Shown one piece after another: positions 4,691 through 18,943 of a DNA stretch of 22,948 nucleotides; position 1 is the first letter of the stretch, and every line of letters starts with the position of its first letter. The position numbers and the translations under genes were made by a program. Origin of the DNA: an uncultured Planctomycetaceae bacterium (GTDB lineage: Bacteria; Planctomycetota; Planctomycetia; Pirellulales; Thermoguttaceae). The notes under the pieces were generated by a model that was not told the DNA's origin, ran no database searches, and worked only from the letters and a program-made list of their open reading frames with translations. The DNA lies in the NCBI GenBank assembly GCA_964438165.1, contig CAYTJV010000045.1, positions 1 through 22,948 of the forward strand, given 5' to 3'.

Positions 4691-6028
4691 TCAGGCTTCG
4701 ACGACCACGAATTCGCAGCCCGCGTCGGTCCAGGTATCGGGCGGCATTCGCTCCAAGGCGAGGCCCGCGCTTCTTAGACGTTCGATGGCCTTGTCGGCGC
4801 GGCCTTGCGGATCCAACAGGGCAAAGGGCCCGACTCCGGCGAACACGTCGAGCGGCTGGAGCGTGAACAGGGCCCGAATCCGCTCGATTCCCGGCGGGCT
4901 CCCGACGACCCACTCCCGGCTCTCGTCCGGTCCGTTCAGCCCCACCGGCGCGCCGGTCCGCAGCCGGTAGTTCTCCAACAGCACGTACACCTGCCCGCTC
5001 GTGCCCAGGTCGAGCAAGGTGAGATAACAGTCGCGGTCGGTCTGGGCGTTGAGCGTGAACCGCTCGCCGATGCGAAACCAATCGCGGCTGGTCCGCGGCA
5101 CGGTGACGATGTCCCGGCTGGTGGGCCGGTTGCTGCGATCGGTCCAAATCCTGCCCGAGAAGGTAGGCCGGGGCTGCGCGACGCGGTTGATGGCGTGGAC
5201 GAGCGCCTCGGGCTGACGCGACGAGTCGACCTGCTTCGCCTTTTGCGTAAAGGCGTCCTGGCGAACCGCCTCAGCGCAGAGTTTGCAGTGCCCCGGCACA
5301 CTCTCGTCCTCGTGTTTGCGGCAGACCGTCTTGCGGCAGCGGGAGCAGGCAAGCCCCTGGTCGGCCGCGACCGGGCGCCCGCACTGGCCGAACCCGCACG
5401 CCGTGCGCTGCTCCGCACCCGCCGGACGCAGGGCAATCGGCTCCCAGCGGCACTCCGGCGCGGAAGCGGCCTCGTTCCCGAGGCCGAAACTCAACAGGTC
5501 CTTCACGTCGCTGCCGTACATCTCCTTGAGCTGCGAGAAATCGAGATGGATTCCGCCTTCGATGCGGACGCCCGCGCCCTGGCGGTGTCCCTCTTCGTCG
5601 ATCCGCACGAAGAAACTGCGGTCCGGGCACTCGAACGCCACGCCCTCTTCGGGCTTGCCGGCGGGGGTGACGACCACCCGCAGCGTCTCGACGGGCAGGT
5701 CGCCCGCGATGCCCGGCCGAAAAGGGAAGCTCAGCACCAATGGCTCGCCCCGCCGGCCCAACCGGCAGTATTGCTCCAGTTCGCTCGGCTCCTGCTCCAC
5801 GTACTTGCCGCGCCCGTGCAGCAGGAGCCGCACGGTCACGTCGCAGTCCGCGTCGGCCACGCGGGTCGCGCGCAGGCGAAGCTGGCACAGGCTGCCCCGC
5901 ACGTGAGGCCGATGCGTCTCCACCTCGAGCACGACCTCCGCCGATGCGCCGAGCGGGCGCCCGCACTCGCTGCAAAACGACGCCCCCGGTTCGGGCACGG
6001 CTCCGCAATGACCGCACGCCAGGTCCAT
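4691..6028 (-). CDS. Zinc-ribbon protein with a DUF4384-like C-terminal domain (last gene of the minus-strand ESCRT-like operon)
   Basis: An AAGGAG ribosome-binding site precedes the ATG. The N-terminus has CxxC…CxxC (MDLACGHCGA…CSECG), with a second Cys cluster mid-protein (CGFGQCG…CSRCRKTVC…HCKLC). The C-terminus (DCYLTLLDLGTSGQVYVLLENYRLRTGAPVGLNG…) resembles DUF4384, which is often fused or adjacent to kinases and caspases. The DUF4384 call is from memory. Confidence 0.6.
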   Translation of the reverse strand: MDLACGHCGAVPEPGASFCSECGRPLGASAEVVLEVETHRPHVRGSLCQLRLRATRVADADCDVTVRLLLHGRGKYVEQEPSELEQYCRLGRRGEPLVLSFPFRPGIAGDLPVETLRVVVTPAGKPEEGVAFECPDRSFFVRIDEEGHRQGAGVRIEGGIHLDFSQLKEMYGSDVKDLLSFGLGNEAASAPECRWEPIALRPAGAEQRTACGFGQCGRPVAADQGLACSRCRKTVCRKHEDESVPGHCKLCAEAVRQDAFTQKAKQVDSSRQPEALVHAINRVAQPRPTFSGRIWTDRSNRPTSRDIVTVPRTSRDWFRIGERFTLNAQTDRDCYLTLLDLGTSGQVYVLLENYRLRTGAPVGLNGPDESREWVVGSPPGIERIRALFTLQPLDVFAGVGPFALLDPQGRADKAIERLRSAGLALERMPPDTWTDAGCEFVVVEA

Positions 6029-6040
6029 TGCGACTCTCCT

Positions 6041-7942
6041 TCACTGGAAGAACCGGTGTCCGCAATTGTCGCAGAACTTCGATCCGCTGGGGATCTGACG
6101 GTGGCAGGTCGGGCAGACGACTTGCGGACCCTGTTGCACAGGGCCGGGGGCGCCGGCCTTCGCGGCCGCCACGTCGGCCAGGCGGTCCATGCTTTGCCCG
6201 GCCATGGCCTGCACATCGCGGGCGTGCTCGCGCTCCTTGGCCGCCGCGGCTCCGGCCACCCGCTCCATCGAGCCCATCGCCTTTTCCATGACCCGCTCCA
6301 GCCGGTCGGCTTCGGATTCCTTGCCGGCGAGGATTTTTTCGTACAGGGCCTTGACCTCGGCGCTTGCCCCGGCCTGGACCTGGGCCTTGGCACGCTCGGC
6401 AATCGCCGCCGCCACCTGCGGCGAGTCCTTGGCCACCAGGGCCAGGATCTGGTCCGGGCTAAGGTCCTTCATCACCTCGGTTTTCTTCAGATCCGCCGCC
6501 AGCCGAGTCTGCTCCGCCTCGGAAAGGGCATGAATCCGCTCCAGCTCCCGCTTCGCCTCACGGTCCTTGGCCTCTTGCTCGCGGGCGATCCGCTGGGACT
6601 CCTCTTCGTGATCCAGCGCGACCTTCTTCTCGCGCAACCGCATACCCAATTCTGCCTTGCGTTCGACGATACGCACGTCGGCCTCGGCCTCGGCGATTCG
6701 CTCGTCGCGGCGGCCCTCGGCAACGCGTCGCTCGTGTTGTACCTTCTCCCAGTCGGCCTCCTGCCGGGCACGGAGATCATCCCGCCCGTACCGGATGCGG
6801 TTCTCCAACTCCGCGTCGGAAAGGGCGTGACGCTGGCGGAGCACGGCCAAGTCGTGCTCCAGATCGAGCTTCTCCAGCATGTGCCTCCGCGCCACATCCG
6901 CGTCTTCCCGCTTCTCGGTGAAGGTGCGCCGCAGTTCCTCCATTTCGTCGGCGCGGACGAGGTCCTTGAGGCCCAGCTCGTGCTCGGTCTGACGCACGAA
7001 ATCTTCGAGCTCCTTCGCCGACGAGAACTGATTCATGCGGTCCGCGGTGAGCGTTTCGCGCAGCCGGCGGTTGAGCGCTGCCCGGCGATCGGCGTCGTCG
7101 GCCCCTGCCTCGGCGAGGCAGGTTTCGCCGCGGCGATCGCGAAGGGCTTCGTAGGATCGGCACGCCACGTGCAACGACCTGAGCGCCACAAGCTCCAGGC
7201 CGCTGCGCCGCAGGGCAGGCTCGATCCGCTGTCGCAGGTCGTTTTCCAGCGCGGCCTTCCACTGTGGATCGGCATTGAGATCGGCAAGCGATGCCTCTTG
7301 GACGCGGGCCCGAACCGTGTCGGCGCACGCGCTGCGCACCAGGTCGGCCACCGCGGCCTTGGGGAGGCTCTCCCGGCCGTGCACCAGGTTGGTGAAAAAG
7401 GAGAGCGGGTCGGCCACGCGCACCACGACCTCGGCCGTCAGGTCGGCAACGACCTCTTCCCGGGTGCGGAGGTCCCGGTACTCAAGCCCCAGCGCGGTGT
7501 CGCCCGCGTCGACGAGGATCGCGCTCGCCGGCGCGGCGAGGTTGAGTCGGGCCGGCAGCCGGGCCAGGTCATAGTTCCCGGCGGAGACCACCGCGGCCAG
7601 CGCGCCGCGTTGAAACACGAGGGCCTGCGTGCCCGGCTCGACCACCAGACGCCGCCGGAACAGCCCGCGAAGGTCGGCGGCTTCGATCCGGCGGGCGAAC
7701 TCGTCGCCGGAGCGACTCCAACGGTTCAGGGCGTCGACCGGCGCCGGCTCGTCGTCGCTGCGGCCCGCGGAAGCGCCGCAATGGCTACACAACTTGGCGT
7801 CGGCCTTCAAGGGCTTACCGCAGGCGGCACACGTGCCCTGGCTGGAGGGAATGGGTCGGCCGCAGTGCGGACAAAAGGCCGCGCCCCAGCGGACCTCCTT
7901 GCCGCAATCGAAATGGGGACACTGGCGGGAGAGAATGCCCAT
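6041..7942 (-). CDS. Flotillin/SPFH (band-7)-like protein with N-terminal and C-terminal zinc ribbons and a long Glu/Arg/Ala-rich coiled coil
   Basis: The start is taken at the internal Met (MGILSRQCPHFDCG…), because the upstream extension is Arg/Trp-rich junk. The N-terminus has three CxxC pairs. An SPFH-like core reads VVEPGTQALVFQRGALAAVV…AILVDAGDTALGLEYRDLRTREEVVADLTAEVVVRVADPLSFFTNLV. A flotillin-like EA-rich coiled coil follows, and the C-terminus has CPTCH…CDNCG. It is a paralogue of the protein at 17005-18933. Confidence 0.6.
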   Translation of the reverse strand: MGILSRQCPHFDCGKEVRWGAAFCPHCGRPIPSSQGTCAACGKPLKADAKLCSHCGASAGRSDDEPAPVDALNRWSRSGDEFARRIEAADLRGLFRRRLVVEPGTQALVFQRGALAAVVSAGNYDLARLPARLNLAAPASAILVDAGDTALGLEYRDLRTREEVVADLTAEVVVRVADPLSFFTNLVHGRESLPKAAVADLVRSACADTVRARVQEASLADLNADPQWKAALENDLRQRIEPALRRSGLELVALRSLHVACRSYEALRDRRGETCLAEAGADDADRRAALNRRLRETLTADRMNQFSSAKELEDFVRQTEHELGLKDLVRADEMEELRRTFTEKREDADVARRHMLEKLDLEHDLAVLRQRHALSDAELENRIRYGRDDLRARQEADWEKVQHERRVAEGRRDERIAEAEADVRIVERKAELGMRLREKKVALDHEEESQRIAREQEAKDREAKRELERIHALSEAEQTRLAADLKKTEVMKDLSPDQILALVAKDSPQVAAAIAERAKAQVQAGASAEVKALYEKILAGKESEADRLERVMEKAMGSMERVAGAAAAKEREHARDVQAMAGQSMDRLADVAAAKAGAPGPVQQGPQVVCPTCHRQIPSGSKFCDNCGHRFFQ

Positions 7943-7994: not shown

Positions 7995-8837
7995 TTACAC
8001 GATTTCTTCCATCTTGTCGAGCACCACCCAGTTGTATGCCAAGGCCGTGACCGCAGCCGCAACCAGCAGCAGGGCCGCCCAACCACGTTCCAGTTGGAAG
8101 CCCATCATGGCGTATGCGGCCGCGGTCCCCACGAAGGCGAGTCCCAAGAGCAACCCCAAGTTCACCGCGTTCGACTGGCGAGCCAAGGCTCGATGAAGCC
8201 ACGGCGCCAGCGCCAAGGGGAGCAGCAGGACCAGCGCCAGCCACGCCACCAATCGTATCGGCCAGGCGTAACTGGTGACCCTCGCGGCCGCCTGCGATCG
8301 CCCGCGATCGTGTACGACCTCGGCAGTCAGGCTCACCGGTTGTGATGGCTCGCGGGTCTCAACCAAGATCGCCTCCAGGACGGCTTCATCCCGATCGGTT
8401 CGGGCGGCCAGGCTGCGCACGCGGCCGGCCACCAAGTACTCGCTGTCGAGCCGACTGCCGGCCGCCGTGACGGCCGCCTCGAGGGCCAGTTCGTCGTTTT
8501 CGATGCCCAGCTCGCGCTTCACGTTTTCCCAGAGGGATGCCGGACGGACCGCGTATCGACCCGCGCGATCGATCGCCCGGCGCACGGCTTCCGTCACCAC
8601 GCCCGTGGGATCGCTTTCGAACCGGGCCACGACCAACGAGGGCCTTCCCGACGGCGCCGCGGGCAATCGCTCGGCAAGCTGCCGGGCTGCGTCCTCGACC
8701 AGGGCTCGGCGGGCAGGATCGAGCGGCAACGGACGGGAGCGGACCAGCATCCACCCTTGCGCGATCACGACCAGCACCACACCCAGCCGGGCCAACCCCG
8801 TGCCGGCGCGAATCAGTCGGCCGAGCCATCTGAACAT
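7995..8837 (-). CDS. Hypothetical polytopic membrane protein (N-terminal signal-anchor helix, soluble middle domain, about three C-terminal TM helices)
   Basis: The start is taken at MFRWLGRL (GGGAG ribosome-binding site 8 nt upstream). The ORF-track N-terminal extension would overlap the upstream gene. Hydrophobic segments read LARLGVVLVVIAQGW and WPIRLVAWLALVLLLPLALAPWL…LGLLLGLAFVGTAAAYAMMGF…ALLLVAAAVTALAY. Confidence 0.55.
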   Translation of the reverse strand: MFRWLGRLIRAGTGLARLGVVLVVIAQGWMLVRSRPLPLDPARRALVEDAARQLAERLPAAPSGRPSLVVARFESDPTGVVTEAVRRAIDRAGRYAVRPASLWENVKRELGIENDELALEAAVTAAGSRLDSEYLVAGRVRSLAARTDRDEAVLEAILVETREPSQPVSLTAEVVHDRGRSQAAARVTSYAWPIRLVAWLALVLLLPLALAPWLHRALARQSNAVNLGLLLGLAFVGTAAAYAMMGFQLERGWAALLLVAAAVTALAYNWVVLDKMEEIV

Positions 8838-8850
8838 GCTGTATGCTCCC

Positions 8851-9441
8851 CTACGGCTCCCTGCGCATTTCTTCCTCGATCCGCCGCAGCCCGTCGGAGA
8901 TCTGTCCGTCGTCGCCGGAGGCCTCGTCGGCAGCGGCCTCGGTGACCATCTGGTGGGCCAGTTCGCCGAGCTTCCGCTCGTCGAGATCGCGGGCGTCGAA
9001 GAGACTGCCGGCACTGGTTTCCATGGCCACCGAGAGGACTTCTTCGAGGGCCTCCGACTTCTCCACGGCGCGGGCCATTTTGGCCTGCACGTCGGCCACT
9101 TGCTCCGGCGTGGCGCCGCGGAGGATCGAGTTGGTCATCGCCAAAATGCTCTTCAGAAAATCGCCGGTGGCGGCGACCTCGTCGCGGCGCACGCCGAGCG
9201 TCTCCAGTTGCAGCAAGTACCGCTCCCAGCGGCTGACGTGCTCGCGAGCGCGCAGGACCGCCGCGGCCAGTTGCTCGAATTGCTCGCGGTCGCCCAGGCG
9301 GAGGGCCTGCTTGCCCAGTTGCCAGTAGCGCTGCTGCACCTCGCGGGCACTGCGCATGAACCGCTGGATGCGCGTGATCCCCTGGCGGATTTGGATTTTC
9401 GCCTCCAGCTCCCGCTGCTGCCTCGATTTGAACAGTCCCAT
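8851..9441 (-). CDS. ESCRT-III/CHMP/PspA-superfamily-like coiled-coil protein
   Basis: 197 aa from the internal Met. The N-terminus MGLFKSRQQRELEAKIQ… resembles eukaryotic CHMP (MGLFGK…) and PspA (MGIFSRF…) N-termini. The protein is predicted all-helical and charged. The acidic C-terminus ends in an MIM-like stretch, SDGLRRIEEEMRR. The ORF-track upstream extension translates the intergenic hairpin and was rejected. Confidence 0.55.
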   Translation of the reverse strand: MGLFKSRQQRELEAKIQIRQGITRIQRFMRSAREVQQRYWQLGKQALRLGDREQFEQLAAAVLRAREHVSRWERYLLQLETLGVRRDEVAATGDFLKSILAMTNSILRGATPEQVADVQAKMARAVEKSEALEEVLSVAMETSAGSLFDARDLDERKLGELAHQMVTEAAADEASGDDGQISDGLRRIEEEMRREP

Positions 9442-9463
9442 GGTCCGGTCATCTCCGATCCTT

Positions 9464-9524
9464 AGTAGCAGGCACACTCCGTGTGCCGTCCGCCGGCTAC
9501 GGCACACGGAGTGTGCCTACTACT
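9464..9524. promoter_or_regulatory. Nested-palindrome hairpin. The arms AGTAGCAGGCACACTCCGTGTGCCGT / ACGGCACACGGAGTGTGCCTACTACT are separated by 9 nt, and each arm carries a 17-bp self-palindrome GGCACAC-NNN-GTGTGCC. It spans the stop codon of the AAA ATPase and the 5' leader of the ESCRT-III-like gene.
   Basis: Read directly from the sequence. The ORF track shows the mirrored peptide TAHGVCLLL on both strands. Confidence 0.5.
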
Positions 9525-10683
9525 TTGCGCACAACGACTCATACCGCTTCAAGGTCTCCGGCGGCGTATCGGGCCGCAGTTTGGCCAGCGCCGACTCGAA
9601 GTCGTCCCAGCGGAGCGGGCGCGTGGCAAGCTGGTACTTGCTCAGATCGGCGTCGCCGCGGGCGACCCGCTCGACGAGCTTCGGGTTGGCGTCGCCGATC
9701 ATCGTTTCCACGGCCACGGCGGCCAGGTGGGCGAGCTGCCGACCGCTCAGCCCCTCCGACCGCGCCACGAGGCTCTCCAAAGGGAAGCTCAGCGTGTGTC
9801 CCCTCCGCGTCAAATGAATTTCCAGGATTTGCCGTCGAGCAGCAGGATCGGGAAGGGGCACGTAAACGCGGCGTCCGAAACGGCTCAGCGCCGCCGGGTC
9901 CATGAGCCAGGGGGTGTTGGTCGCGCCCAGGGTGAACACGGGCGGGCCGTCTCCGCTGGCAGCGACCCCGCTCAGCTCGGCCAAGAGCGTGGAGAGGACC
10001 TGGCGCTCGGCAGCGCCGGAGGAAAGCTCTCGCGAAGCGAACAGGGCATCGAGCTCGTCGATGAAGACCAGCGAGGGGGCCCGCTGGCGCGCGACCGCGT
10101 AGAGCGTGGCAACCAGCCGGGCCGATTCGCCAAACCACTTGGAGAGCACGGCCGCCGCGCCGACGTTGAAGAACGTGGCGCCCAGCCCGCGGGAAGCGGC
10201 CGCCGCCAGGAGCGACTTGCCCGTCCCCGGCGGACCGAACAACAGGATGTTGCGAATCGGGTCGATCCGCACGCCGGGCGGTTTCTCGGCCACGGCCAGC
10301 CCAAAGGCCAACTGGATCTGCCGCTTCGTCTCCTCCAGGCCGCCGATGTCCTCCCATCCCACCGCGGCCCGCATGATGAGGGCCTCGACCTGGCCTCGGA
10401 GCTCCTGGTCGCCAGACGCGGGTTGTGGGATTGGGCCGGACGGCGGCGCAGGTCGTTGCTCCGAGAGGCGCTGAGCGAGGCTTTCCAGGTTGCGTACACG
10501 GGCCGTTCGCCGCGATCGTTCGGCGGGGCTGACCGCGTACTGGGCATACGCCCGTGCCAGCCCCGCCGCCTCGCGGTAGACGGAGGCGGCTCGTCCCGCC
10601 TCCCCGCCGGCGCGAAGCTCATCGGCCCGCCGGAGGGTCTTGCGAAGCGACTCGTCGATGCTGCGGCTCAAGTCAACGTTCAT
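9520..10683 (-). CDS. Vps4-like AAA+ ATPase (MIT-like N-terminal domain plus a meiotic-clade AAA domain)
   Basis: The start is taken at MNVDLSRS, with GAGAGGAG immediately upstream. The N-terminal ~75 aa form a three-helix MIT-like pattern (SIDESLRKTLRRADELRAGGEAGRAASVYREAAGLARAYAQYA…RSRRTARVRNLESLAQRL) that aligns by eye with the yeast and human Vps4 MIT domain. Walker A is GPPGTGKS and Walker B is LVFIDELD. The meiotic-clade signature ATNTPWLMDPAALSRFGRRVYVPLPD matches the Vps4 stretch ATNIPW.LD.A.RRRFE.RIYIPLPD. The C-terminal helix …DFESALAKLRPDTPPETLKRY is Vps4-like. Confidence 0.75.
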   Translation of the reverse strand: MNVDLSRSIDESLRKTLRRADELRAGGEAGRAASVYREAAGLARAYAQYAVSPAERSRRTARVRNLESLAQRLSEQRPAPPSGPIPQPASGDQELRGQVEALIMRAAVGWEDIGGLEETKRQIQLAFGLAVAEKPPGVRIDPIRNILLFGPPGTGKSLLAAAASRGLGATFFNVGAAAVLSKWFGESARLVATLYAVARQRAPSLVFIDELDALFASRELSSGAAERQVLSTLLAELSGVAASGDGPPVFTLGATNTPWLMDPAALSRFGRRVYVPLPDPAARRQILEIHLTRRGHTLSFPLESLVARSEGLSGRQLAHLAAVAVETMIGDANPKLVERVARGDADLSKYQLATRPLRWDDFESALAKLRPDTPPETLKRYESLCAK

Positions 10684-10694
10684 CGCACTCCTCT

Positions 10695-10773
10695 CGTAGC
10701 TTGGCTCTCCAGAGCCGAGCAAATACGGTCAACATCGCGGAAAAATCGCTCGGCTCTGGAGAGCCAAGCTACG
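10695..10773. promoter_or_regulatory. Nested-palindrome hairpin. The arms CGTAGCTTGGCTCTCCAGAGCCGAGC … GCTCGGCTCTGGAGAGCCAAGCTACG have a ~28-nt loop, and each arm contains the self-palindrome GGCTCT-CC-AGAGCC. It occupies the junction between the Snf7-like stop and the ATPase ribosome-binding site and start.
   Basis: Read directly from the sequence. It has the same two-level palindrome architecture as 9464-9524 and 755-817. Confidence 0.5.
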
Positions 10774-11380
10774 GAGAGAGGACCTTTTCGACGCGCTGGG
10801 CCGCCTCGGCAACGCCCTCCGGCCGGCCGGCTTCTTCGGCGGCGCGGGCGTCTTCCATGGCGGCGACGATGGCTGCCAGGTCGGCATCCGGCTCGGCCTG
10901 CTCCGCGGCCTGCACCGCACCGTCCAGGGAGCCCAGCAGGCTGGTGAACTTCTCCATCTCGAACTGGCCTGCCACGGAGGCCCGCTCGACGTAGGCCGTC
11001 AGCTCCTCGACCGACATTCGAGAGATCACCGAGCCGACTGTGAGCTGCTGCAAGAGCGACATATTCTCCTTGATCTGCAAGAGCCCGTCGACGATCCGCA
11101 GGTGCTTGTGGAAGAACGCGAGCTGCTGGCCTTTGGCGCGGGCGGCGCTATCGAGCTGCTTGATCTTCCGCGCCAGGGCCAGCCGCTGCCGCGAGCTCGG
11201 GTCGTCCTTGCCCTTCATGAATGACTCGTGTTTGCGGGCTTCCAGCTCGTCGGTCTCGCGGCTGACGCGCCGCTCCAACTGCTCCAGGCGGATCTTTTCG
11301 TGCTTCAGCTCGTCGATCGTGAGCCGGTCGATGCCCTTGGGGCTGCCCAGCAAATTCCGCAGACGGTCAAGCAGCAACAT
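10769..11380 (-). CDS. Snf7/ESCRT-III-like coiled-coil protein (first gene of the operon)
   Basis: 203 aa, with a GGAG ribosome-binding site 7 nt before the ATG. The protein is all-helical and charged, with a heptad-like …KIRLEQLERRVSRETDELEARKHESFMKGKDD…RQRLALARKIKQLDSAARAKGQQLAFFHKHLRIVDGLLQI… that resembles Snf7/CHMP4 core helices. The C-terminal tail is acidic. This is weaker than the call for the downstream MGLF protein. Confidence 0.45.
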   Translation of the reverse strand: MLLLDRLRNLLGSPKGIDRLTIDELKHEKIRLEQLERRVSRETDELEARKHESFMKGKDDPSSRQRLALARKIKQLDSAARAKGQQLAFFHKHLRIVDGLLQIKENMSLLQQLTVGSVISRMSVEELTAYVERASVAGQFEMEKFTSLLGSLDGAVQAAEQAEPDADLAAIVAAMEDARAAEEAGRPEGVAEAAQRVEKVLSP

Positions 11381-11435: not shown

Positions 11436-13721
11436 TTACCCCTTCTTATACAACACCGTGCCGACGTCTTTCATCGACTCGCAGACGCACAGGCCCTCGG
11501 CCGCGAGGATGCGGCAGACCTGGTCCGCTGCCTTGCGGCTGATCCCCAGTTGCTCCACGAGCGTCGCCAGGGCAATCGAAGCGTGCTCGGCGAAATGCCG
11601 CCCGATCCATTGCCGCGCCCGCTCCAGCACGGCCGCGCTGACGTCGGCAGAGAACGCCTCGCGCCATGCCGCCAGACGCTCATCCGTTTCCGCCCAGCGG
11701 AAACGCGCTCGATCGCGGTCGTAGAGCACGACGCTCACCAGCCGGTCGCGGAAGGGCCGCGGCCCCGCGCCGCTGGCCATCTGGAGGGCCTCGTCCGTCC
11801 ATCCGGTCGGGCTGGCGAGGATGACCAAACGCCACGTTTTTTCGTCGGCCGCCTGGCGCGCGATCCGATTGAGCAACGACTCCAGTTCCGTCGCGGCGAC
11901 CGGCTGATCGTCGTAACCTTCGGCGGCGAAGCGGCCGGCGTGCAGCACGCTTCGGGCCTCGACCACCACGCGGGCCGTGGTTTTCCACAGCCCGCGCTGC
12001 CGCACCTCGTACACCATTCGGTCCCCCGACGGGCCGTGAATTCCCGCACGGCGCGACGCGTCCGACACGGCCCCGGCCGCGCTCGAGTCGTCATCCGCGG
12101 CCCTTCGGGTGCGCCGCTGGGAAAAGTCGCCCACGGAAATCACGGCCTGCCGCACCGGGTCCACCACCTCGGAGACCTCCGCGAGCGCGTTCTCCACGAC
12201 ACGGAAAAACGTCTCCTCGGCCAATTCCGCATCCGCAGCGGAAACGGCGGGCAGGGTGGCGGCCTGCGCGGGGGCTGGCTTCTGCTCGACCACTTCGGCA
12301 GGATCGCGGGGCAAGTCGCGGGCAACCGGCGGCGGGCTGGCCGCTGGCGCCGCATGCGCGCGGCAGCGCCGCACCTTCCCCGCTCGCCAACAGGCAGAGC
12401 ATATCGATGCCCCGCAGACCTCGCAGGTCCCCGCACTGCTGAGCTTTGAGAGCATGGGCTTGCCGCACGCCGCGCAGCGGTCGAACGACGCATTCCCACT
12501 CGGCCGTCCCGCCTCAACGGCGCGAACTCGCTGTTCGGGCACTCCGGGAGTCTGAAGCGGCAGGGTGGCATCGTGTCCGGCCAGGTACGCGTCGATGGCC
12601 TGAATGAAGTCCTCGGCCGTCTGGTACCGCTGCTGACGCTCGCGCGCCATGGCGCGGCGGATCATGTCGCCCAGCCGGCGCGGCACCGCGGGGTTGAGCT
12701 GGCAGGCGTCGGGCGGATCCTCCTCGCGGATCCGCCGGATCACGACGTACGGATCCGATCCCGCAAACGGCACCGCCCCCACGAGCATCTCGAACAGCAT
12801 CGTCCCCACGGAGAACAAGTCGCTCCGGCCGTCGAGGTCGCGCGTCCCGGCAGCCTGCTCAGGCGACATGTAGCTCGGGCTCCCCAGGACGGTTCCCTCC
12901 ATGGTCTGTTGGCAGGCATCGGCCATGCCGCGGGCCAGCCCGAAGTCGGCCAGCTTCGCCGTCCCCGTGGCGTCTTCCAGGATCACGTTGCCCGGCTTGA
13001 CGTCGCGATGGATCACGCCTTGCGCGTGCGCGTGGCCCAGGCCGGCGAGGACCTGGCGACACAGGGCCAGCGCCGCCGGCGGGTCGAGGCGGCCCTCTTC
13101 GGCGATCCGCGAGGCCAGCGAGCGGCCCTCGACGTACTCCATGTCGATATAGGGCATATCGTTCTCGATCCCCACCGAGTGTACCGCCACCACGCTCGGG
13201 TGCTTGAGTTTGGCCGCGGCGCGGGCCTCGCGGAGAAAGCGTTCGCGGGCTTCGGGGTCGTGGAGCCGCGAGGGGGCCATGAGCTTGAGGGCCACGGTCC
13301 GCTGGAGCGTTCGGTCGACGGCCTGGAGCACGACGCCCATCGCCCCCATGCCCACCAGCGCGATCACGTCGTAGGAGCCTAAGCTGGCGATGTACTTCGG
13401 GTCTTGGGGCAAGTCCAACAACAGGCCGCCGGCCACGACAACCCGGTCGCCGCGGACCTCCACGTGCGGAAATCGTGGGAAGTGCGCGGCGCGGATGGCC
13501 TCGAAATCGGCGTCGTGGGCCGGAGCGTCCTGGCCGATCAAGGCGGCCAGCTCGTCGGTCGGCCCCATGGCCTCGTCGAAGCGCTTTCGGCAAAGGGCGC
13601 AGCCGTCGAGGTGTTTCTGCACCTGGGCCTCTTCGTAAGCCCTGGCCAGTCCGGCCGCCACGCGGGTCAGGACGTCGGGTGAGGGGCACTGCGGGGAATG
13701 AGCCGACTGGGGTTCAGACAT
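11436..13721 (-). CDS. Fusion of an anti-sigma factor (ZAS motif) with a Hanks-type Ser/Thr protein kinase, plus a C-terminal zinc-ribbon and unknown domain
   Basis: The start is taken at MSEPQS…, 2 nt after the sigma-factor stop. The N-terminus carries HLDGCALC (an H-x3-C-x2-C zinc anti-sigma motif). Kinase motifs are ALKLM, HRDVKPGNVIL, DFGLAR and SPSYMSPEQ. A later CAACG…CEVCGASICSAC forms a zinc ribbon. The C-terminal ~250 aa are of unknown family. Confidence 0.8.
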   Translation of the reverse strand: MSEPQSAHSPQCPSPDVLTRVAAGLARAYEEAQVQKHLDGCALCRKRFDEAMGPTDELAALIGQDAPAHDADFEAIRAAHFPRFPHVEVRGDRVVVAGGLLLDLPQDPKYIASLGSYDVIALVGMGAMGVVLQAVDRTLQRTVALKLMAPSRLHDPEARERFLREARAAAKLKHPSVVAVHSVGIENDMPYIDMEYVEGRSLASRIAEEGRLDPPAALALCRQVLAGLGHAHAQGVIHRDVKPGNVILEDATGTAKLADFGLARGMADACQQTMEGTVLGSPSYMSPEQAAGTRDLDGRSDLFSVGTMLFEMLVGAVPFAGSDPYVVIRRIREEDPPDACQLNPAVPRRLGDMIRRAMARERQQRYQTAEDFIQAIDAYLAGHDATLPLQTPGVPEQRVRAVEAGRPSGNASFDRCAACGKPMLSKLSSAGTCEVCGASICSACWRAGKVRRCRAHAAPAASPPPVARDLPRDPAEVVEQKPAPAQAATLPAVSAADAELAEETFFRVVENALAEVSEVVDPVRQAVISVGDFSQRRTRRAADDDSSAAGAVSDASRRAGIHGPSGDRMVYEVRQRGLWKTTARVVVEARSVLHAGRFAAEGYDDQPVAATELESLLNRIARQAADEKTWRLVILASPTGWTDEALQMASGAGPRPFRDRLVSVVLYDRDRARFRWAETDERLAAWREAFSADVSAAVLERARQWIGRHFAEHASIALATLVEQLGISRKAADQVCRILAAEGLCVCESMKDVGTVLYKKG

Positions 13722-14301
13722 CGATCTGCTCCACCGCTTCACGGAGCTTGGCCAGCACGCGCGACTTGCCCACGTACACGTTGCCGACGGTCGTCTGCAA
13801 TTGTTCCGCAACCGTTTCCGGCGGGATCCCGTTGAGCACCGAGCGGCGGAAGGCCTCCCACGTGAGCGGCTGCACGGCCGCGCGCACCCGCTTCATGGCG
13901 ATCTCCAACACCCGGCGCCGATGCTCCTCCTCCACCCACGCCTCCACGGCCTGGCCGGAATCGGCAATCCCGGCGACGATCCGAACGTTGTCCGACCCGC
14001 CCGGCGCCGACGGCTTGCGGGCCTGTCCGTGGAAGTGGCGATACGCGCGGTGGCGGGCGACCGTGCTGAGCCAAGCGCGGAACGACTTGCTCGGATCGTA
14101 CTCGAACGGCTTGCGCGCGATGCGGTTCATCACGATCTGCATCACATCCTGCTGCAAGTCGAGGGCGTCCTGGTACGCCACGCCCATCCGCAACAGGACC
14201 CGCAACACCAGCGGCCCATACAACTCCACGAACTCCTGCCAACTCGCCTGGTCGCCGAGATTCCGCACGCGCAACAAGAGACTGGGCCGAGTTCTTTCCA
14301 C
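13714..14301 (-). CDS. ECF (group IV sigma-70) RNA polymerase sigma factor
   Basis: Region 2 and region 4 motifs read …RPSLLLRVRNLGDQASWQEFVELYGPLVLRVLLRMG…DLQQDVMQIVMNRI… and …VLEIAMKRVRAAVQPLTWEAFRRSVLNGIPPETVAEQLQTTVGNVYVGKSRVLAKLRE. The start is proposed at GTG 14301 (VERTRPSLL, with GGAAGG 8 nt upstream). An in-frame ATG at 14463 would add an Arg/Cys/Gly-rich leader and is less likely. The gene is translationally coupled to the kinase gene. Confidence 0.7.
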   Translation of the reverse strand: MERTRPSLLLRVRNLGDQASWQEFVELYGPLVLRVLLRMGVAYQDALDLQQDVMQIVMNRIARKPFEYDPSKSFRAWLSTVARHRAYRHFHGQARKPSAPGGSDNVRIVAGIADSGQAVEAWVEEEHRRRVLEIAMKRVRAAVQPLTWEAFRRSVLNGIPPETVAEQLQTTVGNVYVGKSRVLAKLREAVEQIDV

Positions 14302-14684
14302 CCCGGGCGCCTTCCAGCCGTTCGGGCGAGTTGCTCTCAGAGGCTGCCCGGAAACGGGGCCGGGCCCCCTACATCGTGTGCGAGGTCGAGCCCCGACACA
14401 CAACCGGGAGCCAGTCCCCGTTTCCGAACCGTCTCTCACTTCCTTCCCGCAAAGCGCGATCATTCTAACCGACCCAGACCTGTATTTGCAGGGGGTGCGT
14501 TCACCTGCCGCTTCCGCGTCGGCACGTTCCGAAGAGCCATGCAACGATGACTAGCCCGGGAAGTGAAGAATCTTACACGAAAAACCTGGGAATGGCGTGG
14601 GAGCGGACTGCCCCCAGCGGCCGAGGAGCGGCAAGACAGGGGGGAGGCGAGACGCCGCCAAGCCAGAAGCAAGGAATCGCTCGC

Positions 14685-14987: not shown

Positions 14988-16886
14988 TTACGATTGCAGG
15001 ATCGCGCCCACCGCAATCCCACCGATCGCGCCGGCGACCAGCCCGCCGATCGGGCCTGCCAGCGCGCCGACAGCCAGACCGAGCACCGCGCCGGCAACCG
15101 CGCCGCCCACAACGCCGGCGAACATCGAGACGCGTCGGGCGGTCTGTTCATCCCGCTTCAGCAGGTCGCCGTCGCGCGCCGCAAGATACTCGCCCCGGAG
15201 TGCCCGATCGTCCGGACGAGCCGTAACCAGTTCCCGCAGCGATGGACCGACTGTCGCTCGCGCCTCCGCCGCGTGCGGGCCGTTGGGATAGGAACTCAAG
15301 TAGCTCCGGTAACCCTCTGGGCTCGGGGCCTGGTGGACCGCGTTCCAGGCCAATTCTTGCTGGTGGGCCTCGTGTTTGTCAAGCTGCTGGAGGAGTTTTT
15401 CCACGGAAGGATCGTGGGGAGCCAACTGGCGGAGCCGCTCTGCCTTGGGCCGCAGTCCCTCGTAATTCTTGCTGGCGATCTGGTCCTTGATCTCCTGGCG
15501 CAACTGGGCGATCGCCTGCATCGACGTCTGCGCTTGACCGAGCACATTCTTAGCGCGGTCGAGCAAATCAGCGAGTTCGGGGTTGTGGAAGGCGTAGGGA
15601 ATCTCCTCCAGCAAGTTGACGGCCTCGGCGAACTTTCCCGCCTTCATCCATTCGTTCGCCTGCCGTATGGCCTCGTCGCGTTTCTTCTGCGCGGCGGCGT
15701 ACTCCTGTTGTACGACCGGGAGCTCCATTTCGGCCCATTTGGAAAGCCCGCGCTGGTTAGGGTCCACCGACAAGGTCATGGCGCGCAGGGTGTTGATCGC
15801 CTCCTGATACCGCGACTCGGAACGCAGAGTGGCCACCCGATCGGCAACGGCCTGGGCCTCATCGTCTGCGGCCTTCTTGCTCTGGTCGGGGGCCTCGACC
15901 GCGGGCGCTTGCTTCAACCGCGAATCCAACCCCGCAAGCGCCTGCTCGAATTCCGCGGCGGTCTGATACCGCTTCTCCCGGTCCTTGTGCAGGGCCTTGG
16001 CCAACACGGTCCGCAAGACCTCGGGGACCTCGCTCTCCCGGAAAAAACGCGGATTCTGCCCCGACAGCGCAAACCACAGCGTCCCCCCCATCCCGTAAAT
16101 GTCCGCCCGTTGGTCCACCTTCGACGCATCCACCTCCTGCTCCGGCGCCCCGTACCCAAGCGTCAACAACTGCGCCCCGGCCAGGGTGGCCCCCTCCTGC
16201 TGCGTGTTCACCTGCCGCGCCAGGCCGAAATCCGCCAGCTTCGGCTCCCAGTCCTCGTTGAAAAGGATGTTCGCCGGCTTGATGTCCCGGTGGATCACCC
16301 CACGCTTGTGCGCGTACTTCACCGCGCTGCAGAGCTTGATTCCCAGCCCCACGGTCTTGGCTAGGTCCAGCGCCCCCTTCGCCTTCACCAGCTCGTCCAG
16401 GTCCAGCGGCGGGTTGGGCGCCTCCGCAGGCCAATCGGCGCGCCCACCGGCCTCCGGACCCGCCACGTATTCCATGGCGATGTAGGGCCCCTCCGAGTCC
16501 TCGTCCATCGCGTAGACCTGCACGATGTGGAAGTGGGCTAACGATCCCACCGACTGGGCCTCAGTGTGGAACCGCTGCAAGAGCCGGCTATCCTCGGCGA
16601 ACTGTTCCGACAAGCGCTTCAAGGCCACCCAGCGATTCAGGCGGACATCCTGGGCCAGGTTCACCGTGCCCATCCCGCCCTTGCCGATCAGGTGGACCAC
16701 GCGATACTTGTCGCCGGTGCCGCCGCGCCGCTCGCCCTGGTCACCGGCGGCCGTGCTGCCGACGCCGCCATCGGCGAACGTCGCCCCGTACACGTTTTCC
16801 GGACCCGACGGCGGTTTGGCCGGCCGGGGCTGCGATCCGCTCTGGGGCGATTGTTGGCCGGCGTCGCTGATGGTGCGATCGTCCAT
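14988..16886 (-). CDS. Hanks-type Ser/Thr protein kinase with a C-terminal helical (TPR-like/coiled-coil) region and a glycine-zipper TM tail
   Basis: GGAGG ribosome-binding site. Kinase motifs are GKGGMGTV, VALKRL, HRDIKPANILF, DFGLAR and GYGAPEQ. The C-terminus is …MFAGVVGGAVAGAVLGLAVGALAGPIGGLVAGAIGGIAVGAILQS. Confidence 0.8.
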   Translation of the reverse strand: MDDRTISDAGQQSPQSGSQPRPAKPPSGPENVYGATFADGGVGSTAAGDQGERRGGTGDKYRVVHLIGKGGMGTVNLAQDVRLNRWVALKRLSEQFAEDSRLLQRFHTEAQSVGSLAHFHIVQVYAMDEDSEGPYIAMEYVAGPEAGGRADWPAEAPNPPLDLDELVKAKGALDLAKTVGLGIKLCSAVKYAHKRGVIHRDIKPANILFNEDWEPKLADFGLARQVNTQQEGATLAGAQLLTLGYGAPEQEVDASKVDQRADIYGMGGTLWFALSGQNPRFFRESEVPEVLRTVLAKALHKDREKRYQTAAEFEQALAGLDSRLKQAPAVEAPDQSKKAADDEAQAVADRVATLRSESRYQEAINTLRAMTLSVDPNQRGLSKWAEMELPVVQQEYAAAQKKRDEAIRQANEWMKAGKFAEAVNLLEEIPYAFHNPELADLLDRAKNVLGQAQTSMQAIAQLRQEIKDQIASKNYEGLRPKAERLRQLAPHDPSVEKLLQQLDKHEAHQQELAWNAVHQAPSPEGYRSYLSSYPNGPHAAEARATVGPSLRELVTARPDDRALRGEYLAARDGDLLKRDEQTARRVSMFAGVVGGAVAGAVLGLAVGALAGPIGGLVAGAIGGIAVGAILQS

Positions 16887-16924
16887 GGGGATTCCTCCAC
16901 TGGTTCTGTACTACGAACCTCAAA

Positions 16925-17002
16925 TTCAGGGTTCGGGGTTCGGGGGTCGGGATTCCCGTTCAAGCGTCTCCTCCGAGTCCTGAACCCTGAACCCCGAACC
17001 CT
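16925..17002. promoter_or_regulatory. Imperfect inverted repeat built from tandem G-tract heptamers (AGGGTTCGGGGTTCGGGGGTCGGGATTC … GAGTCCTGAACCCTGAACCCCGAACCCT). It lies between the SPFH-paralogue stop and the kinase start and is a candidate terminator, attenuator or G-quadruplex element.
   Basis: Read directly from the sequence. There are four G-runs of 3-5 on one arm and the complementary C-runs on the other, with an ~18-nt loop. Confidence 0.4.
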
Positions 17003-17004
17003 TT

Positions 17005-18933
17005 CTAGGGTTGTCCTTCCTGCGGATCCGGGGGCTGTCCCTGCGGCGCCACGTTGATGACCTGCTGCGGGCCGGTCACCTTGGCAAGCTCCTTGGCCGA
17101 CTGGTACTGTCCCCACTGCTTCACCGCTTCCTGGAGCAACGCGGTGTACTGCTCGTTGTTGCTGGCGTACGATTTGGACAGCTCGTCGCGGAATTTCTCC
17201 TGCATTTGGAACTGCTCCCGCTGGTTTCCGGCCTGCACGCTGGCGGCGTAGGCGGCGGCCAGTTGCGGATTCTCGGCCAGGGCGATGGTGAGCACGGAAT
17301 CGGGAGGGAGGTTGGCGTATTCCCTCAACATGCGGATGCGGCGATTGAGCTGCGACTCCTGCTGTTCGTCTTGCAGCCTCAACGCCTGGCCGTGCATCTC
17401 CATGGCCAACCTCATCTTTTCCTTCTGCAACTCGAACCGGGCGTGTTCCGCCGCCGTGTTCATCTCGATCTCGTGCCGGCGGGCGGCGCCGTCCATTTCC
17501 AGTCGGCGCTGCAATTGCTCCGCGCGCAACAGGTCCTTGTCGCGATCCGTTTCGCGGGCCTCCTTGATCACATGCCGGTCCAGCGCGGCCTGATCCGAAG
17601 CCATCGACATCTCGGTCTCGGTTTCCACGTGAGAGACGTCCTGGGCCTCCGCGCTGTCCATGCGCCGCTGTTCGCGGCCGATCTCCAATTCTTCTTTGCG
17701 GTCGACGAGTTGCTCGCGCTGCAAGGCATTGTCGCCGCGGCGCTTGAGAAGCTCTTCGTAACGCGGACAGATGAAGCGAAACGCCGACACCCGCTCGATC
17801 TTTAGGCCGTACGTGTTGAACGTCGTCGACATGATCCTCTGAAGGTCGCCGGCCACGCGCTCGCGAACCTCGACGGTGTTGTACAAGCGCTCGGCTTTCT
17901 CGTTGCGCACGGCCTCGATCACCGCAGCGAGGAACTCCATGCGGATTTGCTCGTAGAATTCGGCCACGGTGACGGGGACGGGCTTGGCCAGGCTGGGGCC
18001 TTTGGCCCCGGCGCCAAAGAGAACCCGGCCGACCAACTCCATGGGAAATCCAAACAGCTTCCCCACCAGCCCGCCGTGTTTGGGTTGCTGGTCTTCCGCC
18101 ATCCCCAGGGACTTCTTCTGATCCGGGCTGAGCTCCCGCAATTTCCGGTCGATGAACATCTGCAGCAGCCTCACGGGGTCGGCGCAGCGGAGAACGACCT
18201 GGGCCGTGGCCGCCCCGAGGAGGTTGTCGGCCGTGCGGATGCTCGAGCCCCGCAGCGCCGCCTCGACTTCAAAGGCCCATTTGGCCTCGTGCTCTTCGGA
18301 AAGCGTTTCAATGTCGGGGAGGAAGAACGTGGTTGCCAACGGCCCCTGTGCGACCGTGCAGAGGAACACCGGACGCATTTCCTTACCTGCCTCCAGGGCC
18401 AGCCCGAAGCTCTTGCCCAGCCCGCGCCGCGATACGTCGTACTCCCCCGCCTGCAGTACCGCCGTGCGGTGAATCTGGGACACCATGAACGTACACGTCC
18501 CGGGTTGGACCGCCAACTTCTTGATGTTCGGCAAGCTCCCATCGGGCAACTGGTCGGTGACCGTAATCAGGACCAAAGGGAGCTTCGCCATCTGCTCTTT
18601 GGAGGCCCTGGCCCGATTAAAGATGGCCCTCGCGTCAACCTCCTCGATCGGGTTATTCTGCGCGTGGAGCTCGGCGTGACAGTACATGCAGTAGCGGGCC
18701 TCGAACGTCATCTTCTGGCACTTGGGGCATTGGATCCGCTTCGATGCCGCACGGCTCGGCTTGGGATCGGTCACATCGGTGAGTGCTCCACCGCCGGACA
18801 CCGCGGAGAGCGAACCGGCGGTGATGGAATCGCGCTCTAGCCGGGCCGAAGGCAGCTCGGCCAGACAGTGCGTGCAGTACCGGGCCTCGGCCGTCATCTT
18901 GTTGCACGAAGGGCACTTGATTTGCTTGGGCAT
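17005..18933 (-). CDS. Flotillin/SPFH-like protein with an N-terminal double zinc ribbon and a long coiled coil (paralogue of 6041-7942)
   Basis: AAGGA ribosome-binding site. Two CxxC…CxxC units (MPKQIKCPSCNK…CTHC; CPKCQK…CMYC). The SPFH-like core reads …VQPGTCTFMVSQIHRTAVLQAGEYDV…VVLRCADPVRLLQMFIDRKLRELS… and has the same architecture as 6041-7942. A long E/R/Q-rich coiled coil follows. Confidence 0.6.
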   Translation of the reverse strand: MPKQIKCPSCNKMTAEARYCTHCLAELPSARLERDSITAGSLSAVSGGGALTDVTDPKPSRAASKRIQCPKCQKMTFEARYCMYCHAELHAQNNPIEEVDARAIFNRARASKEQMAKLPLVLITVTDQLPDGSLPNIKKLAVQPGTCTFMVSQIHRTAVLQAGEYDVSRRGLGKSFGLALEAGKEMRPVFLCTVAQGPLATTFFLPDIETLSEEHEAKWAFEVEAALRGSSIRTADNLLGAATAQVVLRCADPVRLLQMFIDRKLRELSPDQKKSLGMAEDQQPKHGGLVGKLFGFPMELVGRVLFGAGAKGPSLAKPVPVTVAEFYEQIRMEFLAAVIEAVRNEKAERLYNTVEVRERVAGDLQRIMSTTFNTYGLKIERVSAFRFICPRYEELLKRRGDNALQREQLVDRKEELEIGREQRRMDSAEAQDVSHVETETEMSMASDQAALDRHVIKEARETDRDKDLLRAEQLQRRLEMDGAARRHEIEMNTAAEHARFELQKEKMRLAMEMHGQALRLQDEQQESQLNRRIRMLREYANLPPDSVLTIALAENPQLAAAYAASVQAGNQREQFQMQEKFRDELSKSYASNNEQYTALLQEAVKQWGQYQSAKELAKVTGPQQVINVAPQGQPPDPQEGQP

Positions 18934-18943
18934 CGCAAAATCC

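Follow-up and report, generated by a model that had tools for sequence, protein, structure and literature searches.

Recent reviews confine the pairing of ESCRT-III with Vps4 to archaea and eukaryotes, and a 2025 review holds that a Vps4-like ATPase appears absent in bacteria, where the relatives of ESCRT-III are PspA and Vipp1 (PMC7619361). Ravi et al. 2024 (PMC11237479 and its supplement) report that VPS4-like AAA+ ATPases have been transferred to bacteria, including Planctomycetes. In the bacterial VPS4-like operons that they describe, snf7 is reported to be displaced by a gene for tetratricopeptide repeats and six transmembrane segments (TPR+6TM). For PspA, they report association with SPFH/Band_7 proteins and stress-type regulators (PMC11237479). 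Makarova et al. 2024 describe SPFH/coiled-coil/zinc-ribbon proteins in euryarchaeal ESCRT loci (PMC10936438). Here we analyze a stretch of 22,948 nucleotides (nt) from an uncultured Planctomycetaceae bacterium (contig CAYTJV010000045.1), referred to as the window, in which a gene for a protein of 196 amino acids (aa) adjoins a gene for an AAA ATPase with an MIT-like domain (MIT-AAA). As a whole, the evidence is best explained by an ESCRT-III protein that belongs to a conserved planctomycetal gene cluster, a reading that we consider probable. Judged by its sequence, the small protein is ESCRT-III proper and not PspA-like. The protein adds a member to a known family, one already labeled by annotation pipelines, and the system is an undescribed bacterial variant of ESCRT-III/Vps4; no description of a planctomycetal operon of Snf7 and MIT-AAA was found in full text, with most subscription journals outside the coverage. 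Three genes are central to the analysis.

8851-9441, minus strand: Snf7/ESCRT-III family protein of 196 aa, from translation, profiles and an AlphaFold2 (AF2) model.
9520-10683, minus strand: MIT-AAA ATPase of 387 aa, here AAA-1, with Vps4/CdvC-like architecture, from Pfam, NCBIfam, AF2 and Foldseek.
10769-11380, minus strand: coiled-coil protein of 203 aa, here cc, a probable divergent ESCRT-III paralog, from hhalign and synteny.

Within the window the cluster runs in the order sigma factor, Ser/Thr kinase, cc, AAA-1, 196-aa protein, membrane protein, SPFH/zinc-ribbon protein and DUF4384 protein. The best sequence-profile matches of the 196-aa protein are the eukaryotic A-type proteins CHMP2A/Vps2, CHMP3/Vps24 and CHMP1B/Did2, which have a similar length of ~200 aa. 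Common to both are an MGLF start in register with MGLFGK of CHMP3, a basic N-terminal part, here a predicted hairpin, followed by an acidic C-terminal half, an amphipathic helix at the C-terminus that keeps the acidic residue of the MIT-interacting motif MIM1 and its i, i+4, i+7 spacing of hydrophobic residues, and an MIT-AAA ATPase partner, known here from gene adjacency. In contrast, identity to the eukaryotic A-type proteins is only ~20-25% and the host is bacterial. Two basic residues of eukaryotic MIM1 tails are replaced by G/A and E, and the tail here continues for one further turn, [LM]-[RK]-[KR]. The locus differs further from eukaryotic ESCRT systems in that it holds no ESCRT-I, ESCRT-II or Vta1 partners, and in its arrangement of SPFH/zinc-ribbon, DUF4384, kinase and sigma factor genes, which is without eukaryotic counterpart.

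Comparison with archaeal CdvB/CdvC and euryarchaeal ESCRT systems reveals a shared operonic layout of ESCRT-III beside MIT-AAA, with an ESCRT-III gene, here the probable paralog cc, immediately preceding the ATPase gene. AAA-1 likewise has a terminal helix, predicted here, and no detected Vps4 beta-domain, and the archaeal CdvC model can be aligned end to end to AAA-1 and also to AAA-2, the latter a second, paralogous MIT-AAA found in most planctomycetal loci but not in archaeal ones. Scores against CdvC, however, are 149-235 bits versus 650, far below the equivalog cut-off. Another shared feature, described for the euryarchaeal 'Meth_adaptin' loci (PMC10936438), is linkage to an SPFH protein that carries coiled coil and zinc ribbons. 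The host, in contrast, belongs to Planctomycetota, and CdvA, adaptin-like proteins and ESCRT-II-type winged-helix (wH) proteins were not detected here. The proline-rich MIM2 and the wH domain that CdvB employs are both absent from the 196-aa protein.

PspA and Vipp1 (IM30) belong to the same superfamily and follow the same general logic of helical-hairpin polymers. They differ from the window in that the protein here carries a Snf7-type sequence signature, with no match to PspA_IM30 or to PspA/Vipp1 structures in the Protein Data Bank (PDB) at the thresholds used, and in the presence of an MIT-AAA partner, which PspA systems do without according to reviews (PMC7619361). In contrast to the operons of Ravi et al. 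2024, a Snf7-family gene is present and adjacent here, together with a second ESCRT-III-like paralog.

The assignment to ESCRT-III is carried by profile comparisons. The Pfam Snf7 model (PF03357) matches the 196-aa protein alone at E=3.6e-4 (20.7 bits; residues 14-154 against model positions 2-143 of 171) and 26 of the 27 orthologs, the best at E=5.2e-10; one ortholog carries the NCBI name 'Snf7 family protein [Pirellulales bacterium]'. An exhaustive profile search returned 357 clusters at 50% identity (E <=1e-3), nearly all of ~200 aa. Searched against the PDB, a profile of the orthologs matched Vps24, CHMP3 and CHMP1B collinearly from the N-terminus, with mglfk over MGLFG of CHMP3. A broad family profile of 63 diverse members, 19-73% identical to the 196-aa protein, was run against 177,635 PDB sequences and matched CHMP2A at 3.7e-6, CHMP3 at 5.4e-6 to 2.3e-5 and CHMP1B at 0.002, with weaker matches to CdvB (0.007), Snf7 (0.026), Vps24 (0.05) and Heimdall ESCRT-IIIB (0.17). 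Its significant, interpretable matches were to ESCRT-III only. An earlier note on this DNA, made from sequence alone, had called the protein CHMP-like and set its MGLF start against the ESCRT-III MGLFGK; CHMP2A and CHMP3 are indeed its best solved relatives, and the ortholog alignment places the two N-termini in register. The likeness to PspA that it also drew did not hold up. PspA_IM30 was matched by none of the 27 orthologs or 63 diverse members, and profile searches of the PDB, read up to E of 1-10, brought up no PspA or Vipp1 chain; membership in PspA/Vipp1 was rejected on these two results at the thresholds used.

Charge agrees with this assignment, and the predicted structure is compatible with it. 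The AF2 model (mean predicted local distance difference test score, pLDDT, 74) places helices at residues 7-49, 52-106, 112-145, 155-176 and 179-193, an ESCRT-III-like order. The earlier note had made its proposal depend on a helical ESCRT-III fold, and the model suggests such a layout, alongside significant ESCRT-III profile matches. Net charge is +8 over residues 1-106 and -11 over residues 107-196, the classical ESCRT-III polarity, and the acidic C-terminal half that had been described ends in a conserved amphipathic helix.

Inspection of the reading frame supports the MGLF start. The protein reads MGLFKSRQQRELEAK...DDGQISDGLRRIEEEMRREP from an ATG at 9441 to a TAG stop at 8851-8853 on the minus strand, with MGLFKSRQQ as its first residues and DGLRRIEEEMRREP as its last. 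The longest open reading frame (ORF) opens at a GTG at 9507, which adds a 22-codon extension upstream of the ATG; the window is GC-rich (~0.58-0.70 per 1-kb step) and contains many spurious ORFs. GC content at the three codon positions is 0.68/0.59/0.68 in the extension versus 0.72/0.42/0.87 in the gene, such that the gene resembles its neighbors and the extension lacks a coding signature; the extension to the GTG also falls within a hairpin with a 26-bp stem. Nearly all of 65 homologs are 195-200 aa long and begin M[GAR]LFKS, the public NCBI gene call gives exactly the 196-aa product, and a GGAG ribosome-binding site precedes the ATG. Given the homolog lengths, the public gene call, the GC pattern and hairpin of the extension and the GGAG, the start is placed at ATG 9441, and the MGLF terminus is real. 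The C-terminal residues had been quoted as ending in EEEMRR; these are present and are followed by two more, E and P. The start site and the two terminal motifs lie as follows.

9453-9456, minus strand: GGAG ribosome-binding site, 11 nt 5' of the ATG, read from the sequence.
9424-9441, minus strand: N-terminal motif MGLFKS, a candidate membrane-insertion patch, from conservation and the CHMP3 alignment.
8857-8910, minus strand: C-terminal amphipathic helix, MIM-like, residues 178-195 (DGQISDGLRRIEEEMRRE), from hydrophobic moment, AF2 and conservation.

Across the 63 diverse members the N-terminal consensus is M-[GSA]-L-F-K-S-[KR], with M1 kept in 57, L3 in 47, F4 in 57, K5 in 49 and S6 in 54. 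The hydrophobic moment of this segment is low (0.17-0.29), and for that reason the N-terminus is described as a short patch of hydrophobic residues with basic ones after it, as in CHMP3 and Vps24, and not as an amphipathic alpha0 helix, the form in which the earlier note had suggested checking it for a membrane-binding signature. The C-terminal helix, in contrast, reaches a hydrophobic moment of 0.89 and coincides with the AF2-predicted helix at 179-193. The family consensus of the tail is D-x-x-[IL]-x-x-[GA]-L-x-x-[IVL]-E-x-E-[LM]-[RK]-[KR]. The MIM1 consensus, known from Vps2 and CHMP1, is (D/E)xxLxxRLxxL(K/R). Its acidic position 0 and hydrophobic positions 3, 7 and 10 are present as D178, I181, L185 and I188, and the family keeps D at the first in 44 of 63 members, I/L/V at the second in all 63, L/I/M/V at the third in 58 and I/V/L at the fourth in 58. 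Both terminal motifs are also conserved over the 357 clusters at 50% identity. By its conservation in sequence, neither end motif is a chance feature.

The neighboring ATPase gene ends 78 nt upstream of the 196-aa gene on the same strand. The mechanically called ORF, 9520-10722, is too long; the start conserved in all relatives (M.[VI]DLSRS) lies at ATG 10683 (MNVDLSRS), and the resulting 387-aa product agrees with the public gene call. AAA-1 matches Pfam AAA at 1.3e-31, and its N-terminus forms a separate domain.

10459-10683, minus strand: MIT-like three-helix N-terminal domain of AAA-1, residues 1-75, from profile against PDB, AF2 and hhalign.

A profile of the first 84 residues, built from ten loci, matched the MIT domain of VPS4B/SKD1 best in the PDB (0.0025), followed by other VPS4B MIT entries (0.007-0.013) and VPS4A MIT (0.18), with TPR proteins interleaved at similar E. 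In the AF2 model of AAA-1 (pLDDT 84), helices at 6-25, 29-47 and 53-75 form a confident three-helix bundle, with block-mean pLDDT of 86-94 up to residue 70; residues 76-88 are a disordered linker to a single AAA cassette, and a last helix spans 375-386. The MIT domains of AAA-1 and AAA-2 match each other in hhalign at 87.5% probability (E=3.6e-6); a Pfam scan of the single AAA-1 N-terminal sequence gave no MIT match. Foldseek places katanin (3.0e-20), FIGNL1, spastin and Vps4 (5.9e-20) on top, ahead of p97, and the modeled cassette is of the meiotic clade type (katanin/spastin/fidgetin/Vps4) with a single classical AAA. The NCBIfam CdvC model (NF041006) is the only one that aligned end to end, with residues 23-384 against model positions 21-364 of 370. 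Orthology to archaeal CdvC does not follow, as AAA-1 scores 149 bits versus the equivalog cut-off of 650. That a Vps4-like gene lies directly upstream, as the earlier note had it, is consistent with both halves of the protein, an MIT-like N-domain closest to VPS4B MIT and a cassette nearest katanin/FIGNL1/spastin/Vps4.

Several observations weigh against the reading of the 196-aa protein as an ESCRT-III partner of this ATPase. The Pfam Snf7 score of the protein alone, 20.7 bits, lies below the gathering score of 27.3, and a single-sequence phmmer search of the protein against the PDB gave no matches, so profiles were needed. In fold searches the AF2 model of the protein was not distinguishable from other long helical hairpins. 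The homologs are without exception from uncultured Planctomycetota, known through metagenome-assembled genomes (MAGs) or metagenomes. By sequence score AAA-1 is as close to Cdc48 D2 and PAN as to CdvC or Vps4, and its Vps4_C score of 17.6 bits lies below the 21.3 cut-off. The basic MIM1 positions 6 and 11 are occupied by G184 and E189; the family has G in 22 and A in 9 of 63 members at the former and E in 42 at the latter, and the basic residues of the tail sit at positions 193-194 instead. Because both diagnostic basic residues are replaced, the tail appears MIM-like and not a canonical MIM1, and MIT binding is putative; of the MIM1 resemblance that had been proposed, the acidic and three hydrophobic positions stand and the basic signature does not. 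Finally, gene order in relatives pairs the Snf7-like protein with an ATPase that is missing here, which makes contact between the tail and AAA-1 the weakest link.

Comparative loci were collected, 28 in all (given as L numbers), from GTDB genomes, metagenomes and exact-protein look-ups. Synteny extends over more than 20 of them at 40-83% identity, and the planctomycetal order is sigma factor, Ser/Thr kinase, cc (1-2 copies), AAA-1, Snf7-like, AAA-2, membrane protein, SPFH/zinc-ribbon and DUF4384. AAA-2, of ~370 aa, shares ~33% identity with AAA-1. Its N-domain matches an MIT domain of the chitin-synthase type (2e-5), and its Vps4_C score, 32.5 bits (8.7e-8), is above the cut-off. The gene follows the Snf7-like gene in about two-thirds of the loci with enough downstream sequence (L001-L006, L008, L012, L014, L016, L025, L026), often with its start at, or overlapping, the Snf7-like stop codon. 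No AAA-2 is present at the 8838-8850 junction of the window or in L028, the closest relative (83% ATPase identity), and none lies downstream in L010, L011, L017 or L018. Since L028 has the same order without AAA-2, its loss from the window is real. AAA-1 is more widely distributed than the Snf7-like gene: many relatives at 44-47% identity lie outside the family of that gene, some of them in Anaerolineales records, and the distant loci L022, L023 and L027 retain a core of HTH_17 protein, cc and AAA-1 with no Snf7-like gene. From these loci, the ancestral unit looks like two tandem pairs, each of an ESCRT-III-like gene and an MIT-AAA gene; the window retains the two small proteins and a single ATPase.

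This arrangement gives rise to the strongest alternative, that the 196-aa protein is an ESCRT-III protein whose tail is read by AAA-2, with AAA-1 acting on the 203-aa paralog. For the present genome, that would entail an AAA-2 encoded elsewhere or an ATPase-independent, PspA-style polymer that stabilizes the membrane. Where both ATPases occur, cc precedes AAA-1 and the Snf7-like gene precedes AAA-2, with the junctions at stop codons just described; the three loci lacking a Snf7-like gene still have cc and then AAA-1, and the 203-aa protein has its own highly conserved C-terminal motif, DLxAIVAAMExARAAEEAG. Against this stands the stability of the AAA-2-less order, which is common to L028 and so no assembly accident, and the tail is still conserved in the 196-aa protein of the window. 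The visible part of the genome amounts to 23 kb only, and cross-recognition is plausible because the MIT domains of AAA-1 and AAA-2 are homologous. We regard this alternative as possible, at less than even chance. AAA-2 is the likeliest reader of the Snf7-like tail in most relatives, and in the lineage of the window, which lacks AAA-2, the single MIT-AAA presumably serves both small proteins. That is to say, the adjacent ATPase proposed earlier as the partner does adjoin the gene here, but in relatives the Snf7-like gene precedes AAA-2, absent here, and AAA-1 follows cc. In one metagenome contig (L020 6807-7310), the AAA-1 MIT domain contributes its first ~48 residues to an in-frame fusion with the Snf7-like protein, which enters at its residue 44, either a deletion variant or an assembly chimera.

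The 203-aa protein always lies directly upstream of AAA-1 in the related loci. By itself it has no Pfam or PDB match, and its narrow profile against the narrow Snf7-like profile gave an hhalign probability of 0.4%. The relationship appeared only once both profiles were broadened, which raised the probability to 90.6% (E=1.3e-6) over 173 collinear columns; the real score of 47.0 compares with reversed or column-shuffled controls of at most 19.4. These comparisons indicate that cc is probably a divergent ESCRT-III paralog. Its motifs are an N-terminal M-x-L-x-D-x-I-K-x-L-L and a very conserved C-terminal DLxAIVAAMExARAAEEAGRPEG, which could be an ATPase-docking element of its own. Two more coiled-coil proteins of ~200 aa lie directly upstream of AAA-1 in L025 (5696-6307 and 6358-6975); they match none of the Snf7-like and cc profiles and may be further divergent ESCRT-III-like subunits. 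In L026, a 299-aa protein (8882-9781) between the Snf7-like gene and AAA-2 combines a cc-like N-terminal segment (profile 'A2', E=1.2e-7) with a staphylococcal-nuclease domain.

The remaining genes of the cluster flank this core on both sides.

7995-8837, minus strand: membrane protein of 280 aa, starting 13 nt after the Snf7-like stop, from translation, with hydrophobic segments at both ends.
6041-7942, minus strand: SPFH (Band_7) protein with zinc ribbons at the N- and C-terminus (Band_7 2.9e-9, Zn_Ribbon_1 5.2e-16, DZR 4.9e-12).
4691-6028, minus strand: zinc-ribbon and DUF4384 protein, the last cluster gene (DUF4384 2e-9; syntenic in L003, L006 and L028).
11436-13811, minus strand: Ser/Thr protein kinase whose C-terminal module of ~350 aa is conserved (Pkinase 5.1e-45; syntenic).
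13714-14544, minus strand: sigma-70 family sigma factor, resembling the extracytoplasmic function type, start uncertain (Sigma70_r2 3.1e-12; syntenic in L003, L020 and L028).

The membrane protein matches no significant Pfam family and is conserved after the ESCRT-III and ATPase genes in L003, L005, L006 and L028. The ORF of the SPFH protein runs to 8086; its homologs align from ORF residue 44-45, and a start reading MGILSRQCPHF lies at 7942, which is probably the true start. With that start, the apparent 92-nt overlap with the membrane-protein gene vanishes. Among the distant loci, the SPFH/zinc-ribbon gene is present in L022 and L025 and probably in L023 and L027; in L022, L023 and L027 its position is farther downstream than the core genes. 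The C-terminal module of the kinase (residues ~432-789) is homologous to stand-alone HTH_17 proteins that lie directly upstream of cc and AAA-1 in distant loci, and its residues 728-777 give a weak winged-helix (GntR) match.

L022, 3282-4514: HTH_17 protein.
L023, 4005-5219: HTH_17 protein.
L026, 5116-6306: HTH_17 protein.
L027, 5029-6273: HTH_17 protein.

Archaeal ESCRT loci have winged-helix proteins linked to them, and this kinase/HTH_17 arrangement is reminiscent of those. Further upstream, signaling-type genes occupy 14988-22623 on the minus strand.

14988-16886, minus strand: second Ser/Thr kinase.
17005-18933, minus strand: double-zinc-ribbon protein.
18944-20770, minus strand: zinc-ribbon and FHA protein.
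20767-22623, minus strand: caspase (Peptidase_C14) and FGE-sulfatase protein.

Zinc ribbons occur in five proteins of the window. Upstream of a distant cc/MIT-AAA locus, L023/L024 87-3631 carries a diversity-generating retroelement signature (RVT_1 and bAvd) beside a kinase/FGE-sulfatase protein. The junction between AAA-1 and the 196-aa gene contains a structured element.

9464-9524, minus strand: RNA hairpin with a 26-bp stem and a 9-nt loop, from an inverted repeat of 96% complementarity; it overlaps the ATPase stop codon.

Its RNA fold reaches -59.6 kcal/mol (z=-8.2) with no T-run after it. The same hairpin occurs in L028 (5455-5535), where the stems differ by a change that reads as compensatory (U-A to G-C), and the AAA-1/Snf7-like junction is only ~20-45 nt in most other loci with readable junctions. 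No Rfam family was matched beyond far sub-threshold look-alikes of miRNA precursors. The hairpin may be a processing, stability or translation-uncoupling element.

By analogy with described systems, a sequence of events may be proposed for the cluster. The basic alpha1-alpha2 hairpin and the hydrophobic N-terminal MGLFKS patch would bind the cytoplasmic membrane, where the 196-aa protein would polymerize, probably in concert with the 203-aa paralog. In the monomer, the acidic C-terminal half would keep the protein closed; once exposed, the C-terminal helix would dock on the MIT domain of the AAA hexamer, which would then use ATP to pull subunits from the polymer and so drive membrane remodeling or repair. 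The SPFH and membrane proteins would serve as a scaffold or site marker. Because a sigma factor and a kinase lie upstream, we lean, weakly, toward a role in envelope stress and repair as somewhat likelier than a housekeeping role in division.

The opposite emphasis, that the cluster is a dedicated membrane-scission machine for division or budding, vesicle release or remodeling of planctomycetal invaginations and not a stress/repair module, draws on the fact that ESCRT-III and Vps4/CdvC perform scission in archaea and eukaryotes (PMC7615534). Two ESCRT-III paralogs with one or more MIT-AAAs also resemble the composite polymers of archaeal systems, and the hosts are Planctomycetota, which two papers describe as a phylum with FtsZ-less lineages (PMC10936438, PMC6952346). 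The carriers, however, are only MAGs and metagenomes with few species representatives, four loci in a GTDB scan with narrow search patterns, and with so few the cluster is not a phylum-wide core gene set on present evidence; the co-located sigma factor and kinase are also as expected of inducible stress modules. We judge a dedicated scission machine unlikely.

Much less probable is an anti-phage or other conflict system with a membrane-active polymer as effector. The neighborhoods of the cluster are variable and include the nuclease fused to a cc-like N-domain in L026; kinases, FHA, caspase and FGE-sulfatase genes lie nearby in the window, and a diversity-generating retroelement lies beside one distant locus. 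PADLOC, however, gave generic domain matches only (AAA to IetA/TRIP13, kinase to PD-T4-6) and none for the Snf7-like, cc, membrane, SPFH or DUF4384 proteins, no relatives were found on viral (IMG/VR) contigs, and the order of the core genes stays stable across deep divergence. A viral or mobile origin was rejected on the same absence from IMG/VR contigs. Last, the notion that the similarity to ESCRT-III is a coiled-coil artefact of an unrelated helical protein, to which the sub-threshold Pfam score of the single sequence might point, is scarcely credible against profile matches that are specific to ESCRT-III, collinear and as low as 3.7e-6, orthologs that pass Pfam Snf7 at 5e-10, and the concordance of N-terminal register, charge polarity and MIT-AAA neighbor.

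With the 196-aa protein read as ESCRT-III, this locus and its relatives are bacterial instances in which Snf7-type ESCRT-III genes and genes for MIT-AAA ATPases form physical pairs, and the SPFH/zinc-ribbon protein of the cluster mirrors one from euryarchaeal ESCRT loci. A broader claim, which we put forward as rather doubtful, is that Planctomycetota and wider bacteria with the cc, MIT-AAA and SPFH core possess a self-contained ESCRT-type machine for ATP-driven membrane scission or repair, made up of two ESCRT-III paralogs, one or two Vps4/CdvC-like MIT-AAAs and an SPFH/zinc-ribbon scaffold. If true, this would overturn the view of ESCRT-III plus Vps4 as an archaeal invention found in archaea and eukaryotes alone, and it would provide a candidate for membrane fission (budding, division, vesicle or invagination dynamics) in a phylum with FtsZ-less members. 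The findings raise the questions of whether the ESCRT-III/Vps4 partnership is older than archaea or was exchanged between domains, how a minimal bacterial version with a non-canonical MIM recognizes its substrate, and what such a system may contribute to membrane fission or repair in Planctomycetota.

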